This document shows, piece by piece, positions 19,651-53,377 of a DNA stretch of 53,377 nt. Each line of letters begins with the position of its first letter. The stretch's first letter is position 1. The stretch spans positions 1-53,377 of the forward strand of contig JAIORC010000167.1 in the NCBI GenBank assembly GCA_021108335.1. Reading direction: 5' to 3'. The DNA comes from Phycisphaerae bacterium (GTDB lineage: Bacteria; Planctomycetota; Phycisphaerae; SM23-33). The translations under genes and the position numbers were made by a program. Under the pieces are notes generated by a model that saw only the letters and a list, made by a program, of their open reading frames with translations, made no database searches and was not told the DNA's origin.

Positions 19651-19903
19651 ATGTCGGGTGCCCCCCAGGGGGCGGTAAAAAAACGCGTCGGGTGGCATGG
19701 TCAGCGGCAAAGCCGATGGCCATGAAAGATAGATATACGACGGCGAGTGGTATGTTGGGTGGTTTTGAGAAAGGGATGTCGCAGAAATTGCGAATCGATC
19801 TTTCATGGCTACCCCGCAAAAAACGCGGGGTTTCCATGCCACCCGATGTCGTGGGAATTTGCAATTTTTCATTTCTGCGCGGCGGTCTTCCCAGGCTGCC
19901 GCG
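19651..19903. repeat. Intergenic palindromic-repeat mosaic A, including the nested-stem element 19689-19845
   Basis: CGGGTGGCATGG (19689-19700) pairs with CCATGCCACCCG (19834-19845). GCCATGAAAGAT (19719-19730) pairs with ATCTTTCATGGC (19798-19809). Hairpin CCCCGC-A6-GCGGGG at 19812-19830. GCGCGGCGGTC-TTCCCA-GGCTGCCGCG at 19877-19903. 19769-19863 is repeated at 53283-53377 on the opposite strand. Confidence 0.85.
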
Positions 19904-20021
19904 AAAACGGCATGAGTGCCACGTGACAAAAATTAAAATATAAAATATTCTACTTTCGCCGGACAGGCCGATTATTTCTAATAGAGTAGTTGTAGACATG
20001 ACCCCTTATGGAGAAGGTACC

Positions 20022-20984
20022 ATGAAACACATCTTTTGCACCATCAGCGTTCTGGCTGCCATCGCCGCCGTTAGCGGCTGCGGCAATACGAGAATTATCG
20101 AAGCCCAAACCCTGCTGCGAAACAAGATTGAGATGGGACTGTATCCCACCGACAAGCTCCTGCAGAGCAAGGCCATCGACCTGCACCGGACCTTTACCAT
20201 GCCCGATAAGGTCGAAATCGACGCATGGGCGATCAACGCTAAAAAGTCCCCCGTTGCGGGTACTGTCATCCTGCTGCACGGTACCGGCCAATGTAAGTGG
20301 AACTACCTCGGCATCGGCAAGAATCTCGCCAAACGGGGCTACGACGTGGTGCTGATCGACCTGCGCTGCCACGGGAAAAGCACCGGTAAATACATCACCT
20401 GCGGCGCGAAAGAAAAGCAGGACGTCAAGACCGTCGTCGACACGTTGATCCGGGAAAAGAAAATCGCCGCCAAGCCGCTATACGTCTTCGGCGTTACGTT
20501 CGGAGCCGCTACCGCCCTGCAATATGCCGCAATCGAGCCGAACGTCGCCGGCGTGGTGGCGATGGCCCCCTGGAAAGACACTGTTACCAAGGCCCGGCGG
20601 GACGTCGGCATGCTGATGGAAGAAAAGGAATTCAGTGCCGTGCTGGACGACGTAGGCAAAATCGCTGACTTCGACCCGCGGGCAACCTCCGCCGCCAAAG
20701 CCGCCGCGAAACTCAAATGCCCCGTTTACCTGATTCACGGAAAGGCTGACCTGGTCGTGCCCGTTTCGGACAGCGAAGCGATTTTCGCTGTCCTGACAGG
20801 CCCAAAAGAACTGAAACTCATCTCGCCAGGCCCGGAACAACTACTCGTCGGCATGGCCTGGGAAACCTGGGTGCCGGACCAAATCGAAAAACTGCAAAAA
20901 CTGGAAAAACAGGAACCGGGGAAAACGGTGAAACAGGAACCAGGAACTAAAGAACCGGGAAAAACGGAAAAACAAAAACCGTAA
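20022..20984 (+). CDS. Alpha/beta-hydrolase-fold lipoprotein with an atypical nucleophile elbow and a K/E/P-rich repeat tail
   Basis: Signal plus lipobox-like AAVSGC; VILLHGTG; nucleophile elbow reads GVTFG (Thr codon 20496-20498) instead of GxSxG; HGKADLVVP. Tail is KQEPGKTVKQEPGTKEPGKTEKQKP. ATG 20022 has a GGAGAAGG RBS. Confidence 0.65.
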   Translation: MKHIFCTISVLAAIAAVSGCGNTRIIEAQTLLRNKIEMGLYPTDKLLQSKAIDLHRTFTMPDKVEIDAWAINAKKSPVAGTVILLHGTGQCKWNYLGIGKNLAKRGYDVVLIDLRCHGKSTGKYITCGAKEKQDVKTVVDTLIREKKIAAKPLYVFGVTFGAATALQYAAIEPNVAGVVAMAPWKDTVTKARRDVGMLMEEKEFSAVLDDVGKIADFDPRATSAAKAAAKLKCPVYLIHGKADLVVPVSDSEAIFAVLTGPKELKLISPGPEQLLVGMAWETWVPDQIEKLQKLEKQEPGKTVKQEPGTKEPGKTEKQKP

Positions 20985-20986
20985 AT

Positions 20987-21242
20987 TGTAGGGTGGGCCT
21001 GCCCCCAGGGGGTGCTTGCACCCACGCGGGAACCAGGAATCCGTTGAAATGGGAACCAGGTTTTTGGGTGGCATGGTCCCCCCCCCTTGGGGCAGGCCTG
21101 GGGACCATGTGTTTTTCCCAGTTCCTGTTTTTTCAGTGTTTGGGTGGCATGGCTTGCTTGGGGACCATGTGTTTTTCGTCCTGTGTAGATGCAAGCACCC
21201 ATCCTACGAGTGGCATGGTGGCACAGGTTTGCAACCTGTGCC
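20987..21242. repeat. Intergenic palindromic-repeat mosaic B
   Basis: TGTAGGGTGGG..CCCCCAGGGGG..TGCTTGCACCCACGCG at 20987-21028. Two copies of TTTGGGTGGCATGG...GGGGACCATGTGTTTTT at 21063-21117 and 21139-21177. GGCACAGGTTTGCAACCTGTGCC at 21220-21242. Confidence 0.85.
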
Positions 21243-21279
21243 TGGTTACGGAAAACGGTAAACAAGCCCCGGTTTTCGC

Positions 21280-21870
21280 TCAGCCGCCTCCCAGCGTCGG
21301 TTTCGCTGCGACTGAGTACACCGGCCCTTCCCTGGTAAGCCGGCTGGTGTAGACGGTCAGATGCTCCAGCCGTACCCGCCCGAAAAATTCTTCAGCCAGG
21401 GAATCCGCTACTGCCCGCATTGCCTCCGCCTGCTGTCTGCTGACGTATTTGATTCTCGCGAGGGTAATGTGCGGGTGAAACGAGCGGTTTTCCGGTGGGA
21501 AGCCCAGTGGCCCAAGTGCCTTTTGCAGGTCGGCGTGCAATTGGCCGAGCCGGCCTGTCGTATCGGCTACGTCCGCCCAGAACATTCGCAACGGCCCTCG
21601 CGGAGGAATCACCCGAACACCCCGGACATCGAACTCGATAGCCCCCGGCTGTCGCGCAGCCACCTCGCCGGCAAGGCGGCAGACCTCGGCAAGCACCGCG
21701 TCTTCGCAATCGCCGAGAAAGACTGCCGTTACGTGGAGATTTGCCGGCTGTACCCAGGCTTGCCCCAAGGGGGGGACCTTGCTGCCCTTGCCCAGCCGGG
21801 TCTGCAATTCAGCCATCCGCCGGCGGCTGGCGTCGTCGATGTCAAACGCGATAAATGTTCGATGCGTCAT
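21280..21870 (-). CDS. thpR: RNA 2',3'-cyclic phosphodiesterase (2H phosphoesterase, ThpR/LigT family)
   Basis: Two H-x-T-x motifs (HVTAVFLG and HPHITLARI) with the usual spacing and size. ATG 21870; an upstream GTG at 21885 is also possible. Confidence 0.75.
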   Translation of the reverse strand: MTHRTFIAFDIDDASRRRMAELQTRLGKGSKVPPLGQAWVQPANLHVTAVFLGDCEDAVLAEVCRLAGEVAARQPGAIEFDVRGVRVIPPRGPLRMFWADVADTTGRLGQLHADLQKALGPLGFPPENRSFHPHITLARIKYVSRQQAEAMRAVADSLAEEFFGRVRLEHLTVYTSRLTREGPVYSVAAKPTLGGG

Positions 21871-21909
21871 GTCGGGTTCACCCACGCGGACGTAATAATC
21901 ATGGCTACC

Positions 21910-22365
21910 CTACGAAGCAAATTCAGTTAGTTTTCTACAAAGCCAATTATGCTCTTTTTTCGTTTGGCCAGCTATGGCAAGCCATTTCCCATCCGGCAAT
22001 TTCAAACAAATGACATCTCCCTTTCTCAATAACTCCATTTGCATTTCATGTGTTTCCAGTTCAAATACCCACTCTTTATTCCATCGCCTGATTGTTATTA
22101 TTAACACACTGCTCGTGGCAGAAATGCAAAATATCCATCTGGCAATCATTGTGCTCATGATAAACAACCCAACCGATGCAGCCAGCACAGCCGATACTAA
22201 CATAACAGATAAAAAATCGGCCAAAGAGAATTCATCATGCCGGCTAATTCGAATGACGATAGTTTTTTCATGAAATTCCAGTACGCCTTCGCCTTTAATC
22301 CCTTCGCTCTTTTGCTTTGGAGGGGCTATACGGCCGCATTTGATTGGAGTTTTATAATCTGCCAT
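21910..22365 (-). CDS. Hypothetical membrane protein (2 TM) in a low-GC patch
   Basis: ORF with two hydrophobic segments (FLSVMLVSAVLAASVGLFIM, WIFCISATSSVLIITI). G+C is visibly lower than the neighbours. Start set at MADYKTPIK; the track ORF extends to 22431 through a repeat. Confidence 0.4.
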   Translation of the reverse strand: MADYKTPIKCGRIAPPKQKSEGIKGEGVLEFHEKTIVIRISRHDEFSLADFLSVMLVSAVLAASVGLFIMSTMIARWIFCISATSSVLIITIRRWNKEWVFELETHEMQMELLRKGDVICLKLPDGKWLAIAGQTKKEHNWLCRKLTEFAS

Positions 22366-22437
22366 AGTTATACATGCTATGCAGCAGCAGTAGGTTATGC
22401 AACTCGTGGCATAACAATTTTCCGGCGGCACGTATCT

Positions 22438-22463
22438 CGCGGCGGCCTGGGAAGGCCGCCGCG
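22438..22463. repeat. Single GCGGCGGCC-TGGGAA-GGCCGCCGC palindromic module (mosaic C)
   Basis: Perfect 10-bp stem; same family as 37234-37260 but in the opposite orientation. Confidence 0.8.
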
Positions 22464-22499
22464 CAAAGTGTCGGAGGCAAAAAATTTCTTTTGATGTAT

Positions 22500-22527
22500 T
22501 GACGAATGGGGAAAATCCAGTATATTA
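22500..22527 (+). promoter_or_regulatory. Sigma-70-like promoter candidate upstream of tRNA-Glu
   Basis: TTGACG (22500-22505), 16-nt spacer, TATATT (22522-22527). Lies about 110 nt upstream of the tRNA. Confidence 0.35.
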
Positions 22528-22637
22528 CTCAATCCCAATTGCCGCGTCATTGCGGCTGGGTGCTTTTTGACGGTTTACGAATGCAGGTGGCGACATCTGC
22601 TGAGCCTATTGCCAGGGCTTTTCGTGCCGGGCAAAGC

Positions 22638-22710
22638 GGCCCCATCGTCTAGTGGCCTAGGACACCGGGTTTTCATCCCGGCAACCGGAGTTCGAGTCTC
22701 CGTGGGGTCA
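22638..22710 (+). tRNA. tRNA-Glu (anticodon UUC)
   Basis: 73-nt cloverleaf folded by hand: acceptor GGCCCCA/TGGGGTC, D stem GTCT/GGAC, anticodon stem CCGGG/CCCGG with loop TTTTCAT, T arm CGGAG-TTCGAGT-CTCCG, discriminator A. No CCA is encoded. Confidence 0.9.
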
Positions 22711-22746
22711 TAGGGTGCGATTCCAACGAATCGCACCCTATTTTAT
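22711..22746 (+). terminator. Rho-independent terminator after tRNA-Glu
   Basis: 13-bp stem TAGGGTGCGATTC/GAATCGCACCCTA with loop CAAC, followed by TTTTAT. Confidence 0.7.
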
Positions 22747-22824
22747 TGCGCAGAGCCAGCCGCGCCGCGTCTGCCGTTTATATGCTTGCAAATGGTGAAT
22801 CCGAGGGACTAAAATCTCGCCACT

Positions 22825-23871
22825 ATGTTACAGAGACTACCAACCAATCCGTTATTGAAGCCCGAAGACCTCCGCCCCACGCGTGAGGATTTGGAAGTAA
22901 TGTGCACACTGAACCCCGCAGCCGTGCGAGTCGGCGGGGAGATTCTGCTGCTGGTTCGCGTGGGCGAGCGGGTGCGGGATGTCGAGGACGACTGGGTCGC
23001 GTATGTCGTGTTCGATCCCGATGCCGGTCAAACCGTGGTCAAAAAAATCCGCAAAGACAATCCGCACCTCGACACGTCCGATCCGAGGGGCTACTTCCTC
23101 GACGGGAAAATGCTGCTGACGAGTTTATCGCACCTGCGGATAGCACGCAGCCGCGACGGCCAAAAATTTACCTTCGACCCGCAGCCGGCAATTTACCCCG
23201 CCACGCCCTACGAAGCATTCGGCTGCGAGGATCCGCGGATAACCCTTATCGACGGACGATACTACATCACCTATACCGCCGTGTCCGATCGCGGCGTAAC
23301 CGTTGCCATGGTCGGCACGGATGATTTTGTCTCCTTCGAGCGGCAGGGGATAATTTTCCCGCCGTACCAGAAAGACGTCGCCATTTTCCCGCAGAAGGTT
23401 CGCGGCATGTACGTCTGCCGCCATCGGCCTTACATGAGCGAATTCAACCTCGCCTCGATCTGGACGGCTTATTCGCCGGACCTGCATTGCTGGGGGCACC
23501 ACGAAATAACCGTCGCGCCCAAGCCGGACTCGTGGGAGTCCGACCGCGTCGGCTGCGGAGCGGCGCCCATCCGAACCGAAGCCGGCTGGCTGGAAATCTA
23601 TCACGGCAAAGACGAAAACGGGCGATACGCATTGGGAGCGATGCTCAGCGACCTGGAGCATCCCGAGCGGGTGATCTGCCGTTCGTCCCAGCCGGTATTC
23701 GTGCCGGAGGCGGATTACGAAATTTCCGGCATTTACGGGAACTGCGTATTCTCCAACGGCCTGATTGTCGACGACGACGGAACAATGACGATTTATTACG
23801 GCGCCGCCGACCGCATCTGCGCCGCCGCGACAACAACCGTAGACGAAATGATCGCCGCCGCCCAGGGGTGA
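22825..23871 (+). CDS. GH130-family glycoside phosphorylase/hydrolase (beta-mannoside-type, DUF377-like)
   Basis: 348 aa five-bladed propeller pattern typical of GH130 (NPAAVRVGGEILLLVRV...GCEDPRIT.IDGRYYITYTA...AIFP...GAAPIRTEAGWLEIYHG...YALGAMLSDLEHP...VFSNG...TIYYGAAD). Confidence 0.75.
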   Translation: MLQRLPTNPLLKPEDLRPTREDLEVMCTLNPAAVRVGGEILLLVRVGERVRDVEDDWVAYVVFDPDAGQTVVKKIRKDNPHLDTSDPRGYFLDGKMLLTSLSHLRIARSRDGQKFTFDPQPAIYPATPYEAFGCEDPRITLIDGRYYITYTAVSDRGVTVAMVGTDDFVSFERQGIIFPPYQKDVAIFPQKVRGMYVCRHRPYMSEFNLASIWTAYSPDLHCWGHHEITVAPKPDSWESDRVGCGAAPIRTEAGWLEIYHGKDENGRYALGAMLSDLEHPERVICRSSQPVFVPEADYEISGIYGNCVFSNGLIVDDDGTMTIYYGAADRICAAATTTVDEMIAAAQG

Positions 23872-23900
23872 ACCAGGAACCGGGAAAAACAGAAACGGGA

Positions 23901-23962
23901 ATCGGGGGACAACATACTGATTAATTGACGTATATCGGTTTTGATATATTGTTGCCATGGCA
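23901..23962 (+). repeat. 62-bp direct repeat, left copy (flanks the HEAT-repeat gene)
   Basis: ATCGGGGGACAACATACTGATTAATTGACGTATATCGGTTTTGATATATTGTTGCCATGGCA. Identical to 24939-25000 except for one A/G. Contains TTGACG and an extended -10-like TGATATATT. Confidence 0.9.
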
Positions 23963-24025
23963 AGATTAACAGGAGTCATTAGTGTATAATCAGGCAAGCC
24001 AGACCAATGAAAAGGAAAAATTAGT

Positions 24026-24931
24026 ATGGTGTCCCCCGATTTTATGAATCTAAAATATGCAAACCTGTTTATTTTGATATCTTTTGGCATAATGTTTTTT
24101 GGAGGGTGCAAAGCGGAGAACCGCTCCACGAAAAACAAAGAGCCTTCTTCTACAAAAAAAACGGAATCTCAAGAGTTGCGATGTTTACTAGATAAGCTTG
24201 AATCGCATGATGATGAAGTCCAGGAGAGTGGGTGCAGGCAGTTGATGGCACGGGTAATAAGGCGAAAATTGTCTAGTGAGGCCAAACCGCTGATTCCTCG
24301 GATGATGAAGTTATTGAAAAAGGGTGATTCCGATGTCAAACTATCTCTTTTGGTTGCCTTGGGTAGCATGGGGGCCAATGCAAAGGAGGCGATCCCAAGT
24401 ATAAAACAACTTTTGAAACACTCCAATGAGTTGGTTTGCGCTTGTGCAGAAGAGGCTATTGGGCAAATAACAGAGCAAAAACAAAACAAGAAACCTTCTT
24501 CTGCGAAAAACTGGGAATACCAGCAGCTACGGCGCTTGTTAGATAAGCTTGAATCTCATGATCGCGAAGTTCGAATTAATGGATGCAGGCAGTTGATGGT
24601 ACGAGTGATGATAGGAAAATTTTCCATCGCTGTCAAACCTCTAATTCCTCAGATGACGAAGTTATTAGAAAAGGGTGATTCCGATGTCAAACTAACTCTT
24701 TTGGCTGTCTTGGGTAGCATGAGAGCCGATGCGAAGGATGCAATTCCAAGCATAAAGCAACTCTTGAAACACGGTGACATGTTCGTTCGCGCTGGTGCAA
24801 AAGAGGCGATTGAGCAAATAACGGGGCAAAAACAAAATGAGGGCAAAAATCGGGAAAATCCAGATATGATGAAGAGACTAAATCCGGCAGTAAAGCTGGG
24901 CAAATCGGGGGACAGCATACTGATTAATTGA
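24026..24931 (+). CDS. HEAT-repeat lipoprotein (low G+C), internally duplicated
   Basis: Signal plus lipobox-like FFGGC. Two 117-aa units, each with HEAT-like helices (VKLSLLVALGSMGANAKEAIPSIKQLLKH). ATG 24044 is an alternative start. The last 9 codons lie inside a partial copy of the flanking repeat. Confidence 0.6.
   Translation: MVSPDFMNLKYANLFILISFGIMFFGGCKAENRSTKNKEPSSTKKTESQELRCLLDKLESHDDEVQESGCRQLMARVIRRKLSSEAKPLIPRMMKLLKKGDSDVKLSLLVALGSMGANAKEAIPSIKQLLKHSNELVCACAEEAIGQITEQKQNKKPSSAKNWEYQQLRRLLDKLESHDREVRINGCRQLMVRVMIGKFSIAVKPLIPQMTKLLEKGDSDVKLTLLAVLGSMRADAKDAIPSIKQLLKHGDMFVRAGAKEAIEQITGQKQNEGKNRENPDMMKRLNPAVKLGKSGDSILIN
24137..24838 (+). repeat. Tandem 351-bp (117-codon) duplication inside the HEAT-repeat gene
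   Basis: Unit 1 at 24137-24487 and unit 2 at 24488-24838. The protein units align end to end (KEPSSTKK...EQKQN vs KKPSSAKN...GQKQN). Confidence 0.85.
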
Positions 24932-25000
24932 CGGGCAAATCGGGGGACAGCATACTGATTAATTGACGTATATCGGTTTTGATATATTGTTGCCATGGCA
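24903..25000 (+). repeat. Partial (24903-24933) plus full (24939-25000) right copies of the 62-bp direct repeat
   Basis: GGCAAATCGGGGGACAGCATACTGATTAATTGACG occurs twice in tandem. The second copy continues through ...TTGCCATGGCA as in 23901-23962. Confidence 0.9.
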
Positions 25001-25078
25001 GCGATTTTCGTCTTGGGTTTGCATACGTTGCGGCAATTCGATACCATGCTCCCTTGCTATTGATACAGGAGCAACCCC

Positions 25079-26455
25079 ATGAGTATGACAATTACGGAAA
25101 AGATTATCGCCAGACATGCCGGCCGCGATGCTGTTCGCCCCGGCGAAAAGGTTTGGTGCAATGTGGATATGCTGATGACCCACGACGTGTGCGGGCCGGG
25201 CACTATCGGCATTTTTGAAGAGCAGTTCGGCAAAGACGCGAAGGTCTTCGACCCGCAGCGCGTCGTCATTCTGCCGGATCATTATATCTTCACTGCCGAC
25301 CCGAAGGCCCATCGCAACATCGAAATTCTCCGTGATTTCGCCAAGCGGCAGAATCTGCCGTACTACTACGACCCGGACTTCATGATCGCCGGCGACAACA
25401 GCGTGCCCAAGCCGTACGCCGACCCCCGCAAGACCTCCTACGCCGGCGTCTGCCATGCCGCTCTGCCGGAGAAGGGCCACATTCGGCCCGGCGAGCTGAT
25501 GATCGGCACCGACAGCCATACCTGCACCGCCGGGGCGTTCGGCATGTTCGCCTCGGGCATGGGCAATACCGACGCAGCCTTCATCCTCGGCACGGGCAAA
25601 ACCTGGCTGCTCGTACCGCCATCGATGAAATTCGTCTTCCACGGCCAGGTGCCGCCGTACCTGATGGCCAAGGACTTGATCCTGCACGTTATCGGCGAGG
25701 TCGGATTTTCCGGTGCGACGTACATGGCGATGGAGTTCGCCGGCGAAGCCCTGATGAGCCTCAACATCGACGAGCGATGCACCGTGCCGAACATGGCTAT
25801 CGAAGCCGGCGGCAAAAACGGCATCATCGCCCCCGACGAGCTGGCCATCGAATACGTCAAGGCCCGCACGGATGTCCCCTTCGAGCCGGTATACTCCGAC
25901 CCCGACGCGACTTACGTAAAGGTGCTGGAATTCGACACCGACAAACTCGAACCGACGGTAGCTATGCCGCACTCCCCCGACCGCCGCGCACTGGCTAGGG
26001 AGCTGGGCGACGTAACCCTCGACCGCAGCTATATCGGCTCATGCACCGGCGGGAAACTTACCGACCTGCTGGCTGCGGCGAAGGTGCTCAACGGCAAGAC
26101 CGTCAAGATAGATACCTTCATCGTGCCCGGTTCGACAGAGACCGACGCCCGTATGGACGAGGTGATGGTCGACGGCAAAACGATCCGCCAGGTACTCACC
26201 GGCGCCGGCTGCAAGATTGGTCCGGCAAACTGCGCCGCCTGTCTCGGCGGCCCGCAGGATACCTTCGGCCGCGCGAACGAACCCATAAAAGTCGTCTCCA
26301 CGACCAACAGGAACTTCCCCGGACGAATGGGCCATAAGGAGGCGGGCATTTACCTCGCAAGCCCGCTGACCGCAGCCGCCAGCGCACTGACCGGAAAAAT
26401 CACCGACCCTCGCGACGTGGTGAAACTGGACAAACCCGTCGGCCTGGCGGTTTGA
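25079..26455 (+). CDS. leuC: Aconitase-family dehydratase large subunit (3-isopropylmalate / homoaconitate dehydratase LeuC/HacA type)
   Basis: MTITEKIIARHAG...VDMLMTHDVCGP...GTDSHTCTAGAFG...GSCTGG...NRNFPGRMG. AGGAG RBS. No small-subunit gene is adjacent. Confidence 0.8.
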   Translation: MSMTITEKIIARHAGRDAVRPGEKVWCNVDMLMTHDVCGPGTIGIFEEQFGKDAKVFDPQRVVILPDHYIFTADPKAHRNIEILRDFAKRQNLPYYYDPDFMIAGDNSVPKPYADPRKTSYAGVCHAALPEKGHIRPGELMIGTDSHTCTAGAFGMFASGMGNTDAAFILGTGKTWLLVPPSMKFVFHGQVPPYLMAKDLILHVIGEVGFSGATYMAMEFAGEALMSLNIDERCTVPNMAIEAGGKNGIIAPDELAIEYVKARTDVPFEPVYSDPDATYVKVLEFDTDKLEPTVAMPHSPDRRALARELGDVTLDRSYIGSCTGGKLTDLLAAAKVLNGKTVKIDTFIVPGSTETDARMDEVMVDGKTIRQVLTGAGCKIGPANCAACLGGPQDTFGRANEPIKVVSTTNRNFPGRMGHKEAGIYLASPLTAAASALTGKITDPRDVVKLDKPVGLAV

Positions 26456-26460
26456 CAGGT

Positions 26461-26483
26461 GGCACAGGTTTGTAACCTGTGGC
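26461..26483. repeat. Single GGCACAGGTT-TGT-AACCTGTGGC module (mosaic D)
   Basis: Variant of the 23-nt palindrome seen at 21220, 38238, 42416, 42543 and 51086. Lies 6 nt after the leuC stop. Confidence 0.75.
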
Positions 26484-26499
26484 TGAAAATTGAAGAATT

Positions 26500-27744: not shown

Positions 27745-27745
27745 G

Positions 27746-28100
27746 GGAAAAACAGGCTGTAGGCCGGAGGCTTGAGGCTGTAGGAGTAAACCGGGGGGCA
27801 AGCAGTTTTTCCTCCCGCCTCCAGTTTGGGTAGGCCGGGTCTTGACCCGGCGATAAGAAGGCGATAGCCTTCTTACATGGAAATCCCATCCGATAATACA
27901 TCGCTGAAAAAACGTGTTTTTCGCCGCCGTGAAGCCAAATTGGACAAACTTGTTGTATGTGCCATGCAATTGCCGGGTCAAGACCCGGCCTACCAGAAAC
28001 GGAAAAAAACAGGCTGGAGACTGTAAGCTTGAGGCTGTAGGTAAACCTGGGAGCAAATTGTAGGGTTTGCCGTTTGGCAGTTTTTCCTCCCGCCTCCAGT
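27746..28100. repeat. Intergenic repeat mosaic E: direct repeats flanking an inverted-repeat-bounded core
   Basis: Direct repeats at 27746-27824 and 28001-28100 share GGAAAAACAGGCTG, GCTTGAGGCTGTAGG and an identical 24-nt GCAGTTTTTCCTCCCGCCTCCAGT. GGTAGGCCGGGTCTTGACCCGGC at 27829-27851 is inverted at 27972-27994. The core segment 27913-27994 recurs, inverted, at 50958-51036. Confidence 0.85.
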
Positions 28101-32015: not shown

Positions 32016-32825
32016 TCAAGCTGGAACAGGCGTTTGTTTCTTTGTCGCGGGTTTCTTTTCCGTGGGGGGTGGTTTTGGCCCTGCCGGCGGGATAGCGTTT
32101 TGAGGCCGTGCCGTGCGGGATTTCTTCGCCTTCAGCTCGATGATTTTGCCGGCTTTGTCTGTGGTTACCGTCAGCGGCGTAGCAGCCGACCAGCCCGATC
32201 CGACGTATTTGCCCTCGGCGTAGTTCCAGATTACCGCCATCGCCCAGACGGTGAAGGTTTTGCCCTTCGGGAGATTCTCCGCAGCCTGCAGTTCGGCGAA
32301 ATCGACGTCCAGGCGGCAGTTGGTCCAGCGGGCGGGGCTTGGGGTATCCGGCGTGAAAAGATTATTCCACCGCCGGGTAAGCATCTTGCCGTTTTTCCGC
32401 ACCAGCGGGATAGCTTGCCCAAGGCGGAATTCCACGTCCAAAGCCAACCAGCGATTGCCCGGAGCGGTAATCTCGACCGCCGAGCGAATAACGAAATATC
32501 CCTTGCCGGTGGCGGCGTCTTTGCCGATCTTGACGACATCGTTTCTCAAATAGCGAACGGAAACGGTTTTGATTTTCGTGTTTGCTTTAGTTTTTGCTTT
32601 TGCCGGTGGCGACACTGCGGATTTTGCTTTCCCCTCAGCTTTCGCGGCTTTTGCGGGTTTCGCGGGCGTTTTGGCCTTGGTTTTTTCCGTAGTCTTGGTT
32701 TTCTCCTTCGGTTCCGCCGCCGTTACCTGGCACGTACATGGCTTGCAAGCTTGTCCCCAAGGGGCAAGCCATGCCACCCACGGCAACAATATCACAGCCA
32801 CGCACGATAATATAATTCGTCGCAT
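32016..32825 (-). CDS. Hypothetical secreted protein with K/A/T/P-rich linkers
   Basis: Signal-like MRRIILSCVAVILLPWVAWLA, a lysine/alanine-rich stretch, then a ~150-aa beta-rich domain. No recognisable family. Confidence 0.45.
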   Translation of the reverse strand: MRRIILSCVAVILLPWVAWLAPWGQACKPCTCQVTAAEPKEKTKTTEKTKAKTPAKPAKAAKAEGKAKSAVSPPAKAKTKANTKIKTVSVRYLRNDVVKIGKDAATGKGYFVIRSAVEITAPGNRWLALDVEFRLGQAIPLVRKNGKMLTRRWNNLFTPDTPSPARWTNCRLDVDFAELQAAENLPKGKTFTVWAMAVIWNYAEGKYVGSGWSAATPLTVTTDKAGKIIELKAKKSRTARPQNAIPPAGPKPPPTEKKPATKKQTPVPA

Positions 32826-33691: not shown

Positions 33692-33713
33692 GCCGCAATT
33701 CTAAGCAAAACCC

Positions 33714-33735
33714 GCGTGGGTGCAAGCACCCACGC
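33714..33735 (-). terminator. GCGTGGGTGC-AA-GCACCCACGC module acting as a likely terminator of the upstream minus-strand gene
   Basis: 10-bp stem. On the minus strand it is followed by GGGTTTTGCTT. Lies 7 nt after the stop of 33742-34449. Confidence 0.45.
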
Positions 33736-33741
33736 AGACGG

Positions 33742-34449
33742 TTATGGCTTTTCGGCGAGTTTGAGTGCTTTGGCGAATTTTGCGTTGTGGGGTTTGGCAA
33801 GAGCCTTGGCGAACTCGTCGCTGGCCATCCATCGAAGATTCCTGTTGGCGAACAGATTGGCGAACAGTACGTTTCGGCCATGCTCGTTGAAATCGAAGCC
33901 AGCTTTTTCGCAGGCTATGATTGTCTCTGCCGGGGCGTCCTTGGCTGGGGCTAAATAGCAATATGCCACGCCCAATTTTTCCTTGCCAGGATACCGCAAT
34001 CTTTTTTCGGTTATATACTTTTCTTTGACAAGCTGGCTGAGTTGTTGGGGATACTGGTTGTTGTTTTCGGCTGCATACGCTGTTATCGCATGACGAAGAC
34101 CATGGAGATTATTCTGGGATATTGCCCGCCTGGAAAGAATTCGCCCCGAAAAGAATAATGCAAATATGGCCAAAAAGCTCAACACGATTCCCACTATTGC
34201 CAAACCTTTTTTGGAACGTTTGGTAGTCAAGGCAATGATGCCGCAAATCACCGTTGGCAAGCCAAACAGAAATACTGCTGCCAGGGCTAGGTAGACACCA
34301 AGGCACATTGACTTTAGCGGAACAAAAGCCCCGAGTCCGAGAATCAAGGCTATGATACCCATGACCAGGACAGCGATGCTGAGTCTGGCTGATTTTCGAC
34401 GGCCTGGTTGAGACGTGGCCGGCTGTGGTGTCGGCGGCGTTGATGTCAT
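33742..34449 (-). CDS. Hypothetical membrane protein (3-4 TM) with a pseudopilin-like extracytoplasmic domain
   Basis: The hydrophobic N-terminal half is followed by RRAISQNNLHGLRHAITAYAAENNNQYP. This resembles the segment after the TM helix of type II/IV pseudopilins, but there is no prepilin leader. Confidence 0.45.
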   Translation of the reverse strand: MTSTPPTPQPATSQPGRRKSARLSIAVLVMGIIALILGLGAFVPLKSMCLGVYLALAAVFLFGLPTVICGIIALTTKRSKKGLAIVGIVLSFLAIFALFFSGRILSRRAISQNNLHGLRHAITAYAAENNNQYPQQLSQLVKEKYITEKRLRYPGKEKLGVAYCYLAPAKDAPAETIIACEKAGFDFNEHGRNVLFANLFANRNLRWMASDEFAKALAKPHNAKFAKALKLAEKP

Positions 34450-37130: not shown

Positions 37131-37346
37131 CAAAAACGGGAACCAGTTTTTGTAGGGTGGGTGCTTGCACCCACGCGTGGGCTGGTTGGATGGCTATGAG
37201 GAAGAATCGCGCGGAAATGAATTTTTCATTTCCGCGCGGCGGCCTTCCCAGGCCGCCGCGAAACCTGTGCAGGCGGTACAGGCTTGCCCCAAAGGGGGTT
37301 GTAACCCGTGCGAAAACCGCGTGGGTGCAAGCACCCACCCTACAGC
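37131..37346. repeat. Intergenic repeat mosaic F: inverted pair of TGTAGGGTGGGTGCTTGCACCCACGCG modules enclosing further hairpins
   Basis: 37151-37177 and its reverse complement at 37318-37344. Internal hairpins CGCGCGGAAATGAA-TTTT-TCATTTCCGCGCG (37208-37238) and GCGCGGCGGCC-TTCCCA-GGCCGCCGCG (37234-37260). 37296-37346 is nearly identical to the reverse complement of 38378-38428. Confidence 0.85.
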
Positions 37347-37372
37347 CCATGGAAATTCATTTATCCCGGTGA

Positions 37373-38173: not shown

Positions 38174-38211
38174 GGGATATCTCCTTAAACAATTTACATT
38201 TTTTAACTCTA

Positions 38212-38428
38212 GCGTGGTGGCCTTCCCAGGCCACCACGGCACAGGTTGCAAACCTGTGCCACCTACACCAGTTTCGCAACCCGCCCGAAAAAGAATATCG
38301 GGTGCCATGCTTCTGCTTGCAGAAGCATGCTTCGGATTCATCATGGCGACCCCTTCGGTGTCGCCATGCCACCCACGATTGTAGGGTGGGTGCTTGCACC
38401 CACGCGGTTTTCGCACGGGTTACAAACC
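38212..38428. repeat. Intergenic repeat mosaic G
   Basis: Modules: 52-nt double-hairpin unit GCGTGGTGGCC-TTCCCA-GGCCACCACGGCACAGGTT-GCA-AACCTGTGCCACC (38212-38263); GGGTGCCATGCTTCTGC-TT-GCAGAAGCATGC (38300-38330); GGCGACCCCTTCGGTGTCGCCATGCCACCC; and TGTAGGGTGGGTGCTTGCACCCACGCG (38380-38406). Confidence 0.85.
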
Positions 38429-40136: not shown

Positions 40137-40871
40137 ATGCTAGTGTTCATTGACGAAAGCTATCAGCAGAAGGCAGTCGGGGATGTTTGGACTGCTTTGG
40201 CTGCAATATGTGTTCCAAAAGAAAGCTGCCGGGATATTGCCAGAGAGTTATTCAAACTGAAAAAACGTTTCTGGCACGTCAGGGAGCCGGATGAAATGGA
40301 ACTGAAGGGGTCAAAACTTCTCAATGCCAGAGGAGTCCAATCTCCTCGAAATCGAGATTTTATCCAGGAAATCATATCTCTATGCAAACTTTACAAGTTA
40401 ACGCCCTTCGCGGTGGCCCAACACCACCCGGAAGGCTTGGAGCTTAGTCGTTTGCGAGGGAAGGGAATTCTTCCGGATTTGCATAAAGGACTTGTCCGAC
40501 GAGTACACCAATTTTTAGCGGACAAGCATCCTGAGCGACTTGGCATATTGGCGTTTGATGAGCGGGATCGGCAAACAAATCGCCATATATCCAGGGCTTT
40601 TCGGAATTATCTTTTCAAGAGTAAAGAAGCTCAGGAATTCGAGCAGATTGTCGAAACCCCCTTTTTTTACGATTCTGAGATTACCCCTGCCGGGGAAATA
40701 GTCGATATTGTTGCCTATCTAATGTGTGCTCGTTACGCCGGACGAAAAAACGACTCTGTACTGGAGAAATTTTTTATGTCCTTTAGAGATCTTAGTTATA
40801 GCCCTCAAGCCGGGGCTTGGAGTTCAAAGCGGCTATGGGGCTTTTCGGCTTTGGGAGTGGATCCAAGTTAA
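40137..40871 (+). CDS. DUF3800-family protein (unknown function) inserted between pyrB and pyrC
   Basis: N-terminal MLVFIDESYQ and overall size fit DUF3800, recognised from memory. G+C is visibly lower (~48% in the first 60 nt, counted by hand) than flanking pyr genes. ATG lies 6 nt after the pyrB stop. Confidence 0.6.
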   Translation: MLVFIDESYQQKAVGDVWTALAAICVPKESCRDIARELFKLKKRFWHVREPDEMELKGSKLLNARGVQSPRNRDFIQEIISLCKLYKLTPFAVAQHHPEGLELSRLRGKGILPDLHKGLVRRVHQFLADKHPERLGILAFDERDRQTNRHISRAFRNYLFKSKEAQEFEQIVETPFFYDSEITPAGEIVDIVAYLMCARYAGRKNDSVLEKFFMSFRDLSYSPQAGAWSSKRLWGFSALGVDPS

Positions 40872-42352: not shown

Positions 42353-42389
42353 CGTGGGGCATCTTCAAGACCGCCCACCCTTAACTCCC

Positions 42390-42583
42390 GCGTGGTGGCC
42401 TTCCCAGGCCACCACGGCACAGGTTGCAAACCTGTGCCACCCAACACCAGCCACCCTGGATTTGTTTGGGTGGCATGGTCCCCAGGGGACCATGTGTTTT
42501 TGCCCTTCGAGCGGTATCGCGGCGGCCTTCCCAGGCCACCGCGGCACAGGTTGCAAACCTGTGCCACCCAACACCAGCCACCC
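42390..42583. repeat. Intergenic repeat mosaic H: two 65-67-nt double-hairpin units as direct repeats (period 129 nt) around a terminator-like hairpin
   Basis: 42390-42456 and 42519-42583 both read G(T/C)GG(T/C)GGCC-TTCCCA-GGCCACC(A/G)CGGCACAGGTT-GCA-AACCTGTGCCACCCAACACCAGCCACCC. Confidence 0.85.
42465..42501 (+). terminator. Terminator-like repeat module TTTGGGTGGCATGGTCCCC-A-GGGGACCATGTGTTTTT downstream of pyrC
   Basis: GC-rich stem CATGGTCCCC/GGGGACCATG followed by TGTTTTT. The same module occurs twice downstream of the hydrolase gene (21063-21117 and 21139-21177). Confidence 0.45.
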
Positions 42584-43323: not shown

Positions 43324-43345
43324 AACCCTTTGACTCCAACACGCT

Positions 43346-47363: not shown

Positions 47364-47564
47364 AAACTCGCTCCATTATCCACCAACCTGGCGGATGCTA
47401 CGGCGATTCCCTTCTGTTTTTCGGGGAGTTGAGCTACCCGGGGATGCTCCTCCATCTCCAAAAAACAGTATACAATATATTGCTTATTTGTCAAGTTTAT
47501 CTTATTGTTTTTTACGGCTTGTCCGCGAGCCAGCCACGCAGATAAGCTCTGTCGGCAAAAGCAG

Positions 47565-48242: not shown

Positions 48243-48244
48243 TG

Positions 48245-48919: not shown

Positions 48920-48935
48920 TCGTATTCCTCGTACA

Positions 48936-49427: not shown

Positions 49428-49749
49428 CCGCCTATAGTCGGCTCATCGGTTTTTGCGCAAAAATCGTCAACAATCCGCCGCCGCACCGGCAACATCCCGC
49501 GCAGCAACGAAGATATATCGTTATCTATTCCATCGGCAGGAAAAGGCTCAGAGGATTAGCGGACATCGTAGCCGTAGCGCACGGGTCGCGCCGGTGGCGA
49601 ACGATTTTTTACGCGAAAAATTTTGCCATTTCAATGTGATTTTGGGGAAACGGGATATAATTGGAATAGCTTGGCTCGTAAGGGATTAAACGGCTTTTGC
49701 CGGTGGCTCAGCTTGACTCAATTGAAAAATCCCTTCGGAGAGGATTAAG

Positions 49750-50853
49750 ATGGAATTTCGCTCATTCAGACCAGCTACAGGTCTAATCGTGAGGTTTTTG
49801 CCGCGAAGGTTTTTAATTACCCTGCTCCGGGTTGCGGTGGTTTGTTTGTGCGTTTCGCCGGCGATGGCTGTAACCACGACGGACTGGACCGAATATCCCT
49901 CGAACCCCGTCTATTCGCCCCTGCCGGACAGGGCGTATTATCCAACCATAATCAAAGATGCCGGCGTGTATAAAATGTGGTATGACTCTTCGTACTCTTT
50001 TACAGGCCCGTGCTACGCCACTTCCACCAACGGGATCAACTGGACAATCGGCAACGGCGGCAATGCCGTAACCGGCCTGGCCAACGCGAGGCACGCGGTT
50101 GTCCGGTATAATACTTCCATCAGTCGATACCAGACATGGTACTGGGATTCCACCGAACTCTACTCCATAAGCGCCCTTCGCTATGCCGATTCCGCCGACG
50201 GGTTGACGTGGGCGAACGATCAGGTGCTGACGCAAGACGCCAGCCGGCAGATTGTTACCGGTGGCAGCGGCGACTGGAATCGCGGCAGCTATGGCCCGTG
50301 CGACGTGCTGATGAACCACTCGGCCAGCAATACTGGCACCGATCCGCGGGACTATTCGTACGTGATGTACTATGACGGAACGACCGGCGGGGAGGAATCC
50401 GTGGGGCTGGGCTATTCCGCCGACGGGAAGCACTGGTATCGCTACGGGGCGACCAATGCTGACGGCGAGGTGCTGGCTCCGACGAATAACCCCGGCGACT
50501 GGGACAGAACACACGTCAGCCGATGTACCGTCGTCAAGGAGAACGATACCGCATATCACATGTGGTACAGCGGCGGGGACGGCTCGATGAATAACGGAAT
50601 CGGCTACGCTTCCTCCAGCGACGGGATATCATGGACCCGCGACGGGTCGAATCCGATTTTCAGTAAAGACGACGGCGTCGCATGGCGGGACAGCCGCACC
50701 TACACTCCCTGCGTCATCGGCGACGAGATGTGGTTCAGCGGCAGGAACAGCAGCGGCACCTACGCCATCGGCTACGCCGTTCCCGAGCCGGTAACATCAG
50801 GCCTCGTGATTATGGCCGTCGGCCTGCTGCTACGGCGGCGAAAAAAATCATAG
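49750..50853 (+). CDS. PEP-CTERM-anchored secreted five-bladed beta-propeller protein (GH43/GH32/GH130-like fold, no catalytic assignment)
   Basis: N-terminal signal. Repeated Y.MWY....DG..W blades (VYKMWYDS, YQTWYWD, ADSADGLTW, YVMYYDG, SADGKHWY, YHMWYSG, SSDGISW, EMWFSG). C-terminal VPEP + TM + RRRKKS matches the PEP-CTERM sorting signal. Confidence 0.7.
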   Translation: MEFRSFRPATGLIVRFLPRRFLITLLRVAVVCLCVSPAMAVTTTDWTEYPSNPVYSPLPDRAYYPTIIKDAGVYKMWYDSSYSFTGPCYATSTNGINWTIGNGGNAVTGLANARHAVVRYNTSISRYQTWYWDSTELYSISALRYADSADGLTWANDQVLTQDASRQIVTGGSGDWNRGSYGPCDVLMNHSASNTGTDPRDYSYVMYYDGTTGGEESVGLGYSADGKHWYRYGATNADGEVLAPTNNPGDWDRTHVSRCTVVKENDTAYHMWYSGGDGSMNNGIGYASSSDGISWTRDGSNPIFSKDDGVAWRDSRTYTPCVIGDEMWFSGRNSSGTYAIGYAVPEPVTSGLVIMAVGLLLRRRKKS

Positions 50854-50875
50854 CCATCCCCTTTGAATTATCTTG

Positions 50876-51135
50876 CCGGGTGCCATGCTTCTGCTTGCAG
50901 AAGCATGTGTTGTTACGAATTCTATCACCACCGACCAGCCGCGAAGCTACAGTTTTTGGTAGGCCGGGTCTTGACCCGGCAATTGCATGGCACATGCAAC
51001 AAATTCGTCCATTTGGGTCAGTCGCGGCGAAAAACACATGGCTTGCAAGCAAGCCATGCCACCCAACGCGCGGTATGTTGCAGGTGGCACAGGTTTGCAA
51101 CCTGTGCCGTGGTGGCCTGGGAAGGCCACCACGCT
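50876..51135. repeat. Intergenic repeat mosaic I
   Basis: GGGTGCCATGCTTCTGC-TT-GCAGAAGCATG (50878-50907). GGTAGGCCGGGTCTTGACCCGGC plus core (50958-51036, inverted copy of 27913-27994). CATGGCTTGC-AA-GCAAGCCATGCCACCC. 52-nt double-hairpin unit in reverse orientation (51084-51135). Confidence 0.85.
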
Positions 51136-51147
51136 GTGGCGTGTGAG

Positions 51148-53232
51148 TTATTTCTCCGGCGGGAGGGGCGGCGTTGTTATGCCCAGGCGTAACTGGCAGC
51201 GGAGGCAGCGGGAGGCCTCAGCCACGGCAGCCTGCTCGTCGTAGCCAAGCTCTACCTGGCAGAAGCTTTTCGTCCGCTGGGCCGGTTCAAGCTCCGGTAT
51301 GGCAAGGCGGTCTTTCTCCGCGAAACCCTCAACCCTGCCGATATACGGCTCGTCCTGCTCGTCGGGAATATATTTCTGGTCGATATCGCCGTCGCCGTCG
51401 AGGTATTTGTCGATGGCTGTCGCTGCGACGCGCCCGGCGTTGATCGCCTTGATGACCGAAGCCGGCCCGTAGGCGATGTCGCCGCCGGCGAATACGCCCT
51501 GCCGGCTGGTGGCGGCGTTTTCGTTGACCTGTATTTCGCTCCACTTATTGACGTCCACGCCGAACGCCTCCGGCACGACCGACTGCTGGCCGATGGCTGC
51601 GACGAACCAGTCGCCTTCGATCTTGAACTCGCTGCCGTCTACGGGCACGGGTCTCCGTCGGCCGCTCGCGTCAGGCTTGCCAAGCTCCATGCGAATGCAC
51701 TCGATCTGCAGATTTTCATCGCGCGGGTGAATCCGCAGGGGATTCGTCAGGAAATTCATCTCCACGCCTTCGTCCAGGGCTGCCTGGATTTCCTCCGGCT
51801 CAGCGGGCATTTCCGCACGCGTCCGCCGGTAAACCAGCGTAACTTTATCCGCGCCCTTCCGCAGCGCGCTGCGGCAGACGTCGATGGCTACGTTGCCGCC
51901 GCCGACCACAACCACTCTGCCGGGCAGCTCGACATCCTCGCCGAGATTTATCCGCCGCAGCAGGGCGATACCGTCCGTCGCCCGCGCGTCGTCCTCGCCG
52001 TCGATGCCCATCATCGTGCCGTCAACCGCACCGATGCCCAGGTAAACCGCGTCGAACCCGTCGGCGAACAATTCGTCGAGAGATCCGACAGCCGTGTTGG
52101 TCTTCAGATCGACACCGATAGCGGTGATGTCCGCAATTTCCCGATCCAGAATTTCCGCCGGCAGTCGATAACGCGGAATACCCACTCGCATCATGCCGCC
52201 GGCTTCCGGCAGCGCCTCGAAAATCGTTACGGCATAGCCTTTCTTGCGGAGGAACCACGCCGCCGTCAGGCCGGCTGGGCCTGAACCGACGACCGCGACC
52301 TTTTTGCCCGTGTCGGCTGCGACTGTAACCCCCGGCTGCCAGCGACGGGAATCCTGCATGGCTGCGTACTGCTTCAACGCGCGAATGGCGATGGGTTTGT
52401 CCAGGCTTTCGCGGCGGCAGACCTCTTCGCATGGATGGTCGCACACACAGCCGAGCACCAACGGCAGCGGCGCCTTCTGGCGGATAACCTCGACGGCATC
52501 CTGATACTTGCCCTCGGCGATAAGCCCGACGTAACGGGGAATGTCGATACCCGCCGGGCAGGCGTTGGAACACGGCAAAAGGCTCTCTTCCCGCTCGGCC
52601 TCGGTGAAGGTGTTCTTGTCCACCAGCGCGCCGGTGGGGCAAACCTCCACGCACGCACCGCAGAAACGACACTGGGCGTCGGCAAGCGACTCGTCGCTGT
52701 TGGTGTTGACAATCGTGTCTATCCCGCGATTGACCAGCCCGATAGCCCCCACACCGCGAACCTTCTGGCACATCCGCACGCACCGCTCGCAGAGAATGCA
52801 GCGGTTCGGGTCGCGAACGTACAGCGGATCGTTTTCGGCGACGGGCAGAGGCGGCCTGGATTTTCTATGGCCTGCCGGAAATTCCTTCATGCCGATATAG
52901 TCCACCACCTTCTTGAACTGCGTGCCCTCGACCAGCTCGATCGGATACTCGCTAAGCAGCAGCCATATGAGATTCCGGCGGAATTCCTGGACGGCTGGGC
53001 CGTGGGTGCGAACGACCATGCCGTCGGCAGCCTTCGTCGTGCACGAAGTGGGAAAGCCTCGCATACCCTCGATCTCCACCACGCAAAGCCGGCATGCACC
53101 GATCGGGGTGAGGTCGGGATGATAGCACAGCGAAGGAATGTAAATCCCCGCCTGTTCCGCCGCCTCAAGAACGGTTTTGCCCTCTTGAACTTCAATCTTC
53201 TTATCGTCTACGGTTATCGTAATCATTTTCAT
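51148..53232 (-). CDS. Fusion oxidoreductase: NuoG/HydA-N-like [2Fe-2S] + 2x[4Fe-4S] ferredoxin module fused to a GltD/NfnB-like NAD(P)H-FAD oxidoreductase
   Basis: N-terminus ITITVDDKKIEVQEGKTVLEAAEQAGIYIPSLCYH...GACRLCVVEI; CILCERCVRMC and CRFCGACVEVCP; GltD-type CSNACPAG...CDHPCEEVC; VAVVGSGPAGLTAA and VVVVGGGNVAIDV dinucleotide folds. ATG 53232. Confidence 0.85.
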   Translation of the reverse strand: MKMITITVDDKKIEVQEGKTVLEAAEQAGIYIPSLCYHPDLTPIGACRLCVVEIEGMRGFPTSCTTKAADGMVVRTHGPAVQEFRRNLIWLLLSEYPIELVEGTQFKKVVDYIGMKEFPAGHRKSRPPLPVAENDPLYVRDPNRCILCERCVRMCQKVRGVGAIGLVNRGIDTIVNTNSDESLADAQCRFCGACVEVCPTGALVDKNTFTEAEREESLLPCSNACPAGIDIPRYVGLIAEGKYQDAVEVIRQKAPLPLVLGCVCDHPCEEVCRRESLDKPIAIRALKQYAAMQDSRRWQPGVTVAADTGKKVAVVGSGPAGLTAAWFLRKKGYAVTIFEALPEAGGMMRVGIPRYRLPAEILDREIADITAIGVDLKTNTAVGSLDELFADGFDAVYLGIGAVDGTMMGIDGEDDARATDGIALLRRINLGEDVELPGRVVVVGGGNVAIDVCRSALRKGADKVTLVYRRTRAEMPAEPEEIQAALDEGVEMNFLTNPLRIHPRDENLQIECIRMELGKPDASGRRRPVPVDGSEFKIEGDWFVAAIGQQSVVPEAFGVDVNKWSEIQVNENAATSRQGVFAGGDIAYGPASVIKAINAGRVAATAIDKYLDGDGDIDQKYIPDEQDEPYIGRVEGFAEKDRLAIPELEPAQRTKSFCQVELGYDEQAAVAEASRCLRCQLRLGITTPPLPPEK

Positions 53233-53249
53233 ACTCGCACTTTCTGGTC

Positions 53250-53377
53250 GCACAGGTTTGCCCCCAGGGGGGTTGTAACCTGTGCAATTTCCCACGATAT
53301 CGGGTGGCATGGAAATCCCGCGTTTTTTGCGGGATAGCCATGAAAGATCGATTCACAATTTCTGCGACATCTCTTTC
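53250..53377. repeat. Intergenic repeat mosaic J (truncated by the window end)
   Basis: GCACAGGTTTG-CCCCCAGGGGGG-TTGTAACCTGTGC at 53250-53285. 53283-53377 is the reverse complement of 19769-19863, with about 6 mismatches in 95 nt counted by eye. Confidence 0.85.

Follow-up and report, generated by a model that had tools for sequence, protein, structure and literature searches.

The window analysed here is the whole 53,377-nt stretch of contig JAIORC010000167.1, deposited under the name of a Phycisphaerae bacterium, and its intergenic gaps hold mosaics of short palindromic repeats. Genes on it include a chemotaxis cluster (73-12783) and, among others, those for a sigma-54 activator (enhancer-binding protein, 16324-17703), MutL, tRNA-Glu, FtsH, RecO, PyrR, aspartate carbamoyltransferase (ATCase), dihydroorotase (DHOase) and PurD. 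Its ATCase is 81-89% identical to the best-matching relatives, several of which bear the name Phycisphaerae, and the host is taken as an uncultured planctomycete, probably of this class. The repeats are likely to be repetitive extragenic palindromic (REP) sequences of the kind served by REP-associated tyrosine transposases (RAYTs), many of them arranged as REP doublets forming hairpins (REPINs) or bacterial interspersed mosaic elements (BIMEs).

Palindromic units in the intergenic gaps

An earlier note on this DNA had described mosaics of seven palindromic module families, M1 to M7, in at least eleven intergenic gaps. All of the module coordinates given there were located in the window, and 38 palindromic units were counted, 37 of them in 13 intergenic gaps (two of which lie upstream of the range that the note had covered) and one in the 5' end of a called open reading frame (ORF). 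The amount of module DNA, put at about 2.3 kb in the note, was not upheld: the units cover ~1.37 kb, and the gaps that hold them sum to 3.1 kb, or 5.8% of the window. Unit density is ~0.7 per kb, calculated for this 53-kb contig only.

Perfect hairpins with a stem of at least 9 bp number 22 in the window versus 0-3 in Markov shuffles, and 25 of the 31 perfect hairpins with a stem of at least 8 bp fall inside the 3.1 kb of gap DNA. The string GGGTGGCATGG occurs 10 times versus 0.06 expected, and the 20-mer core of M3 occurs seven times versus 0 expected. Because these counts are far above the shuffles and expectations, chance is excluded as their source. The units are self-contained, ~20-45 nt in length with perfect stems of 8-14 bp, and their folding z-scores as single-stranded DNA range from -2.8 to -5.5, the exception being a disrupted M1 at 20986. 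The biggest mosaics occupy gaps between convergent genes at 21.0, 27.9, 37.2, 42.4 and 51.0 kb; units are also found in divergent or upstream gaps (38.2, 53.3 and 22.4 kb), in both orientations.

A second, independent assembly (ERZ26872896 NODE_654) is 99.92% identical to the window over the 12.4 kb that were fetched. In the gaps at 33.7, 37.1 and 38.2 kb, and in part of that at 27.7 kb, the repeats are identical in the two; all ten mismatches fall elsewhere, and the repeats are therefore not assembly artefacts. With chance likewise excluded, the intergenic palindromic mosaics of the earlier note are borne out. One end of the second contig lies inside the 27.7-kb repeat gap, and the window contig itself terminates within the second arm of a 95-nt repeat (53283-53377). 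No record of the last gene (51148-53310), by which the contig might have been prolonged, was found with any of three start choices. The units and the longer repeats that contain them are as follows.

10603-10645 (-): M7-type REP, CTAGGGTGG-CATGGCGACC... hairpin, in the gap between two methyl-accepting chemotaxis protein genes
12824-12855 (+): M3 variant with an 11-bp stem, CGCGGCGGCC(A), and loop TTCT
19654-19677 (+): mini-REP, leader GGGTGC plus a CCCCC-A-GGGGG palindrome (the CCCCCAGGGGG unit); its core is also nested in other units
19686-19726 (+) and 19803-19848 (-): inverted pair of two different M7-type REPs, GGGTGG leaders outward
19769-19863 and 53283-53377: arms of the 95-nt repeat
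19875-19906 (+): M3 copy whose stem has two G-T mispairs
20986-21244: mosaic between convergent genes
20986-21030, in the same mosaic: M1 with a nested CCCCCAGGGGG insert
21062-21118 and 21138-21178 (+): two tandem M5 hairpins with T-runs
21180-21210 (-): degenerate M1, followed by M2 at 21214-21244
22435-22466 (-): single M3 unit upstream of tRNA-Glu
26455-26485 (+): M2 variant with a GTGG foot
27826-27853 (+) and 27970-27998 (-): inverted M6 pair in the gap 27745-28100, feet outward, ~115-nt spacer
27745-27825 and 27995-28100: ~85-nt direct repeat around the M6 pair, 82% identity
27935-28000 and 50952-51017: 66-nt repeat
32735-32785 (-): M5-type REP with a nested CCCTTGGGG core, in frame at codons 16-31 of the called gene 32016-32825 (-)
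33709-33740 (-): M1 core hairpin, 10-bp stem, lacking the GTAG head and followed by TTTGCTT, directly after the stop of gene 33742-34449 (-)
37148-37179 (+) and 37316-37347 (-): inverted M1 pair between convergent genes, GTAG heads outward, 140-nt spacer
37208-37238, 37232-37263 and 37268-37316: contents of the M1-pair spacer, namely a 14-bp hairpin, an M3 and an M2-like unit with a nested core
38210-38408: mosaic between divergent genes
38210-38268: abutting M3b-M2 doublet
38293-38335: M4
38340-38378 (-): M7-type REP
38377-38408: M1
42388-42446 and 42515-42573: two M3(b)-M2 doublets in the gap downstream of dihydroorotase
42462-42503 (+): M5 hairpin with a T-run, flanked by these doublets
50871-51137: mosaic between convergent genes
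50871-50916: M4 with a TGTTGTT tail
50952-51017: M6 plus 60 nt in common with the 27.9-kb spacer
51026-51068 (-): M5 with a T-run
51080-51137: M2-M3b doublet
53245-53289 and 53298-53343 (+): M2-like unit with a nested core and M7-type REP

Viewed in this way, the list of modules in the earlier note needs some regrouping. M3 and M2, there kept as separate modules, frequently abut as halves of a single doublet (38212-38265, 42390-42443, 42517-42570 and 51083-51135), and M7, there a separate half-site, is the leader of M5-type hairpins. The listed M5 copies at 21063, 21139 and 42465 (+) stand and are joined by a fourth, at 51026-51068 (-); the M5-type copy within an ORF (32735-32785) and the stand-alone CCCCCAGGGGG unit (19654-19677) had been overlooked. 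The in-ORF copy codes for WVAWLAPWGQACKPC, placed right after a signal-peptide-like N-terminus. Within the right copy of the ~85-nt direct repeat (27995-28100) is a 20-nt insert bearing a small GTAG-footed hairpin.

Common foot, paired layout and terminator-like units

When the units are oriented by their conserved unpaired leader, all copies of each family align in register, with the following consensus sequences.

M1: T-GTAG-G-GTGGGTGC tt GCACCCAC
M6: G-GTAG-GCCGGGTC tt GACCCGGC
M2: G-GTGG-CACAGGTT tgc AACCTGTG, the GTGG lying inside a (G)GGTGG leader
M5/M7: (T/C)NGG-GTGG-CATGG...CCATG, to which M5 adds TGTTTTT
M4: GG-GTGC-CATGCTTCTGC tt GCAGAAGCATG
M3b: C-GTGG-TGGCC ttccca GGCCA-CCAC-G, with GTGG...CCAC on both ends

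GT[AG]G stands at the stem base in 14 of the 25 perfect gap hairpins versus a background of 8%, and in four more hairpins (three M3b units and the M1 core) GTGG is found just inside the stem. A 5' GT[AG]G tetranucleotide at the hairpin foot is the signature of canonical REPs (PMC6006769; PMC3733652). The seven families thus hold as repeats and not as unrelated families, as nearly all of them share the foot of canonical REPs.

Seven inverted pairs were identified with their feet outward: one of M1 (37148/37316), one of M6 (27826/27970), one of M7 (19686/19803) and four of M3(b)-M2, the last being heterodimers with zero spacer. The window therefore shows the layout of REPINs and BIMEs, with inverted REP pairs and clusters of alternating orientation, and the observation that the modules are combined in varied orders and orientations, as in BIMEs, is supported by these doublets and by the intermixed clusters.

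The arms of M3 and M3b co-vary (CGCGGCGGCC/GGCCGCCGCG versus CGTGGTGGCC/GGCCACCACG), and the M5 copy at 21138-21178 is chimeric, with a left arm (CTTGC) as in 51026-51068 and a right arm (GGGGACC) as in 42462-42503. Both observations point to upkeep of the hairpin as such and to recombination between copies. A CCCC(C)AGGGG(G) mini-palindrome is present on its own as well as inside loops or arms of M1, M2 and M5 units (19654-19677, 20986-21030, 21062-21118, 37268-37316, 42462-42503 and 53245-53289); GGTTTGC and GGTTGTA flank it in the M2-like forms, an arrangement that resembles a short duplication.

The 95-nt, 66-nt and ~85-nt repeats are composites of REPs plus flanking DNA. Common blocks longer than a single unit could be taken to mean that the units are fragments, or miniature inverted-repeat transposable element (MITE) derivatives, of a classical insertion sequence with an intact copy elsewhere, and one M2 doublet described below (from metagenome Ga0315274) does sit inside a ~130-nt element with terminal inverted repeats. 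We consider this origin very unlikely, since each unit is a self-contained hairpin of 22-45 nt, no consistent terminal inverted repeats or target-site duplications surround the units, the window has no DDE or other transposase, and long blocks made of REPs with flanking DNA are as found in REP clusters (PMC3733652).

The M2 consensus contains TGGCAC...TTGC and a sigma-54 enhancer-binding protein is encoded in the window, so that the units might be binding sites or promoters, M2 for instance being a sigma-54 promoter served by the activator at 16324-17703. Sigma-54 promoters require GG-N10-GC spacing (TGGCAC-N5-TTGC). M2 reads TGGCAC-AGGT-TTGC, that is GG-N9-GC, one nucleotide short, and it was rejected as a sigma-54 promoter on this spacing. 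Most M2 copies also follow a gene or lie in a convergent gap, and M2 forms a perfect palindrome joined to M3; a role of the units as binding sites or promoters is accordingly the most improbable of the explanations considered.

A T-run follows the hairpin in the M5 units (21062, 21138 and 42462, +; 51026, -), in the M4 unit at 50871 and in the M1 core (33709, -). The four M5 units, one M4 unit of two (that at 50.9 kb) and the M1 core all face away from the upstream gene's stop codon, and all of them came out at the top of a terminator scan. Judging by these sequence features, the T-run subset probably has a further role for the upstream gene, in Rho-independent termination or in stabilising the 3' end of its mRNA. 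The same features, with the position of the largest mosaics between convergent genes, the lack of a transposase on the contig and the recombination between copies suggested by the chimeric and co-varying units, would be expected if the hairpins were mainly terminators or mRNA 3' stabilisers selected by the host that had multiplied through local duplication and gene conversion, without a transposase of their own. This is an unlikely account of the repertoire, as most units have no T-run and as they occur in both orientations, in divergent and upstream gaps and in one ORF. Nor does it explain the conserved unpaired GT[AG]G leader, which is the RAYT recognition signature and plays no part in termination, and M1 and M2 doublets are present in unrelated genomes, in one of which M1 flanks a RAYT.

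Other genomes, RAYT genes and further features of the window

The exact 27-mer of M1 was found at 33 loci of other genomes in a genome collection, mostly Pirellulales and other Planctomycetota metagenome-assembled genomes (MAGs), and also in Alysiella crassa DSM 2578, Neisseria sp. HSC-16F19, a Brachymonas MAG and an Anaerolineales MAG. Nearly all of these copies form head-outward doublets, 16-50 nt apart. In the Brachymonas MAG two M1 copies flank a frameshifted RAYT gene (motifs DHLH...YIHFNP, with a Pfam Y1_Tnp match), and GTAGGGTGGG was found within the loci of 21 of 80 relatives of this RAYT, in most cases on both sides of the gene; one of these is a Planctomycetaceae MAG. An M6-like GTAGGGCGGGTCTTGCACCCGCC precedes one RAYT relative (L128). 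The identity of the M1 27-mer across such loci (L002, L024, L028, L032 and L009) could be due to horizontal transfer of a RAYT together with its REP, or to limits set by RAYT specificity.

A RAYT-like gene with a Pfam Y1_Tnp match is also encoded in the Pirellulales MAG CSMAG_2275 (locus L001, 5290-6340), with an M1 REPIN 1.4 kb away. Short GTAG- or GTAA-footed hairpins are arrayed on both sides of this gene and inside its 5' part. Its family comprises 7,074 relatives, many annotated by the Joint Genome Institute (JGI) as 'REP element-mobilizing transposase RayT', and two of the relatives carry GTAGC-GCCGGC REPs. RAYT genes are common in Planctomycetota, as seen from this family and from published surveys (PMC3733652; PMC6006769).

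The exact 23-mer of M2 was found at 57 loci elsewhere, 15 in genomes (Verrucomicrobia, Phycisphaerales, Desulfobaccales and others) and 42 on metagenome contigs, and of the 59 M2 occurrences outside the window, in genomes and metagenomes together, 56 have GT in front, giving the GTGG foot. No multi-copy relative was detected in an M2 scan of a 185k-genome collection, and in a BLAST comparison of all fetched loci with the window, made to find its source genome, only the repeats matched. In the JGI metagenome Ga0315274 (L135-L175), M2 forms the left half of a head-outward doublet, GGTGG-CACAGGTT..AACCTGTG-CC-C-GCACAGCTT..AAGCTGTGC-CACC, on at least 25 contigs, many of the copies lying at contig ends. 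This doublet is the centre of a ~130-nt element with outer inverted repeats GCGCAGAAATAACCT; the organism shares M2 with the window and no other module or sequence. In Verrucomicrobia (L035, L038, L039, L041, L047 from Akkermansia, L048, L158 and L159), M2 stands in a context that is conserved across genera, GCAGAGAAAGT-M2-GACGGAG...GCGAGTGCTCCA, which may be a conserved element of its own.

An M5/M7-type doublet, GGGTGG-CATGGGCG tct CGCCCATG-TGTTTTT ... CACGGGCG gga CGCCCGTG-CCAC, is present in one Planctomycetota MAG (L133). The modules are not restricted to this locus in the case of M1 and M2, and M3 to M7 are shown on this contig only, the one scan made for them having used an M5/M7 pattern. 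Rfam searches of the window and of the 15 M2-bearing genome loci returned tRNA-Glu only, and a known RNA family was rejected as the identity of the modules.

At the orthologous gaps of two more distant relatives, L130 and L131 (84-85% ATCase identity), different REP families are found, of the (C/T)GTC-ATTCCCGCG type and GTAGG-GCGGGCA. The comparison of sister genomes proposed in the earlier note yielded identical mosaics in the second assembly (L034) and other REP families in L130 and L131, and no empty-site comparison. L130 (84% ATCase identity) contains at 8857-8921, 12747-12836 and 17961-17980 a repeat family, (C/T)GTC-AT(T/A)CCCGCGAAAGCGGG(A/T)AT, of the CGTC-tagged, dRS3-like type.

Several further features of the window were recorded. 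The two tandem methyl-accepting chemotaxis genes (8512-12783), in the gap between which an M7-type REP lies, share 83% nucleotide identity over at least 300 nt and are therefore recent paralogues. A low-GC (43%) HEAT-repeat gene (24026-24931) is surrounded by a 63-nt direct repeat (23900-23962 and 24938-25000, 98% identity), with an exact 35-nt tandem at 24898/24933; the region 23895-25000 has the look of a 5'-region duplication or of an inserted cassette. Between the ATCase and dihydroorotase genes lies a DUF3800 gene (40137-40871, GC ~47%), which looks like an insertion into the pyr operon, since the two genes overlap directly in L130. A low-GC (41%) ORF with no Pfam match (21910-22431) adjoins the tRNA-Glu gene, and a 14-bp hairpin followed by TTTT stands directly 3' of this tRNA (region 22638-22741).

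Probable origin and comparison with known REP systems

The modules are most likely REPs with a GT[AG]G foot, many of them organised as REPINs or BIMEs, that have been multiplied by a RAYT from another part of the genome. What is observed comprises the repeats, with an excess over chance, their intergenic location, hairpin stability, common foot and doublet geometry, and the link of M1-type units to RAYTs in other genomes; from these we infer a RAYT in this genome that would mobilise all of the families. By analogy with characterised systems such a RAYT, an HUH/Y1 enzyme, would multiply and maintain the REPs by binding the hairpin in single-stranded DNA and cutting and joining beside the foot, and units would accumulate where insertion is least harmful, above all between convergent genes.

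Some results weigh against this origin. No RAYT or other transposase was found in the window by Pfam searches of ~40 ORFs or among the gene calls of the 27.7-40.1 kb region. GTGG-CA(T/C)GG-type REPs (M2, M5 and M7) were found at none of the RAYT loci examined, where the REP types are GTAGGGTGGG, GTAGC-GCCGGC or GTGGATGGCC, and the scan of the 185k genomes with the M5/M7 pattern gave only two hits, at chance level, and no multi-copy relative. The canonical foot is lacking in M3 (GCGG) and M4 (GTGC), and there is no presence/absence difference between the window and the one close relative compared, the near-identical second assembly (99.92%). The absence of a transposase, asserted in the earlier note, was also borne out by a RAYT hidden Markov model (70 sequences), the best match of which among all six-frame ORFs of the window had an E-value of 2.2. 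A RAYT distant from most copies is normal in REP systems, in which one RAYT serves hundreds of dispersed copies; REP copy number is usually >100, dispersed genome-wide.

A more specific version of this scheme, which we regard as doubtful, is that one RAYT reads mainly the (T/C)NGGGTGG leader, tolerates almost any stem and services the GTGG-leader families M2, M5 and M7, and perhaps M3b and M4. Hairpins could then diversify freely by arm swapping, as in the 21138-21178 chimera, by co-varying arm changes, as between M3 and M3b, and by the entry of one palindrome into another's loop, of which the nested CCCCCAGGGGG cores of M1, M2 and M5 units would be examples. If true, a leader-guided, stem-agnostic system of this type would explain the identical M1 and M2 units in distant phyla.

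As REPs, these elements are of a well-known kind, and bacteria of the Planctomycetes-Verrucomicrobia-Chlamydiae (PVC) group, including a planctomycete, have already been reported with multiple GTAG/GTGG REP families. What is new is the stem sequences of M2 to M7 (of which the M2 and M7 strings were queried in the literature), the host lineage, the common (T/C)NGGGTGG leader and the hairpin-in-hairpin forms. Among the papers listed by a literature search with M1, M2 and M7 strings, only the generic GTAGGGTGGG head appeared, M3 to M6 not being searched. The suggestion that the repertoire is undescribed therefore does not hold for M1, which is widespread, or for M6, both of which belong to published RAYT-associated REP types (Nunvar et al. 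2010), and stands for the M2 and M7 strings, which were not found in the papers listed. The general understanding of REPs is unchanged by these findings, which extend the REP/REPIN catalogue to an uncultured planctomycete lineage with several GT[AG]G-leader families in one short stretch. In practical terms, the repeats break short-read assemblies (both assemblies end inside repeats), give rise to spurious ORF calls in the gaps and may act as a source of terminators. M1 is nearly identical to REPs of Pasteurellaceae and Neisseriaceae, and M2 recurs across PVC bacteria; both points bear on the question of whether RAYT/REP pairs pass from one phylum to another.

Class 3 TnpA(Y1) elements of Planctomycetes and Acidobacteria (Quentin et al. 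2018, PMC6006769) resemble the window repeats in their planctomycete host and in being short hairpins of high copy number. They are enriched in Planctomycetes and have atypical hairpins with a CnGA foot (PMC6006769), whereas the feet in the window are GT[AG]G, and on this ground the origin was rejected; no class 3 gene was seen.

In REPINs (Bertels and Rainey 2011, PMC3116915) and enterobacterial BIMEs the unit is an inverted REP pair and the clusters are extragenic, as in the window, and the REPIN transposase is single-copy and usually distant from most copies (PMC3116915). The window differs in its many zero-spacer M3b+M2 heterodimers and in having several families intermixed per gap, and the linker motifs of enterobacterial BIMEs (the integration host factor (IHF) site and others) are not evident in it.

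The closest published sequence is that of the RAYT-associated REP of Haemophilus parasuis, GTAGGGTGGGTCTTGACCCACC (Nunvar et al. 2010, Table 1, PMC2817692), from which M1 (GTAGGGTGGGTGCTTGCACCCAC) is one stem base pair apart, M1 being the longer (GTGGGTGC versus GTGGGTC). With the GTAGGGTGGG-type REPs of H. parasuis, H. influenzae and Cardiobacterium hominis (PMC2817692; Charnavets et al. 2015, PMC4690160), M1 shares the GTAG foot, the GGTGGGT stem start, the TT loop and the length class; it likewise forms inverted doublets and flanks the Brachymonas RAYT. Unlike these REPs, M1 has a planctomycete host here, and no RAYT adjoins it in the window.

The broadest likeness is to the GTAG-tagged superfamily of Di Nocera et al. 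(2013, PMC3733652). GTAG REPs were there reported to prefer dimers with the tags outside, spaced 1-2 bp apart in Opitutus terrae, a PVC bacterium; GTGG replaces GTAG in one O. terrae family, several families coexist in Rhodopirellula baltica, and REP clusters drag flanking DNA, with complex self-complementary loops and occasional intragenic copies. The host class of the window, probably Phycisphaerae, was not among the genomes surveyed, and the GTGG foot in the window, unlike that of the superfamily, sits in a longer common leader, (T/C)NGGGTGG. The window nonetheless shares with the superfamily stems of 6-13 bp, loops of 2-4 nt of the TY/CMA type and a GT[AG]G tag at one end, together with coexisting families, tags-outside dimers, clusters with flanking DNA, an intragenic copy and complex loops.

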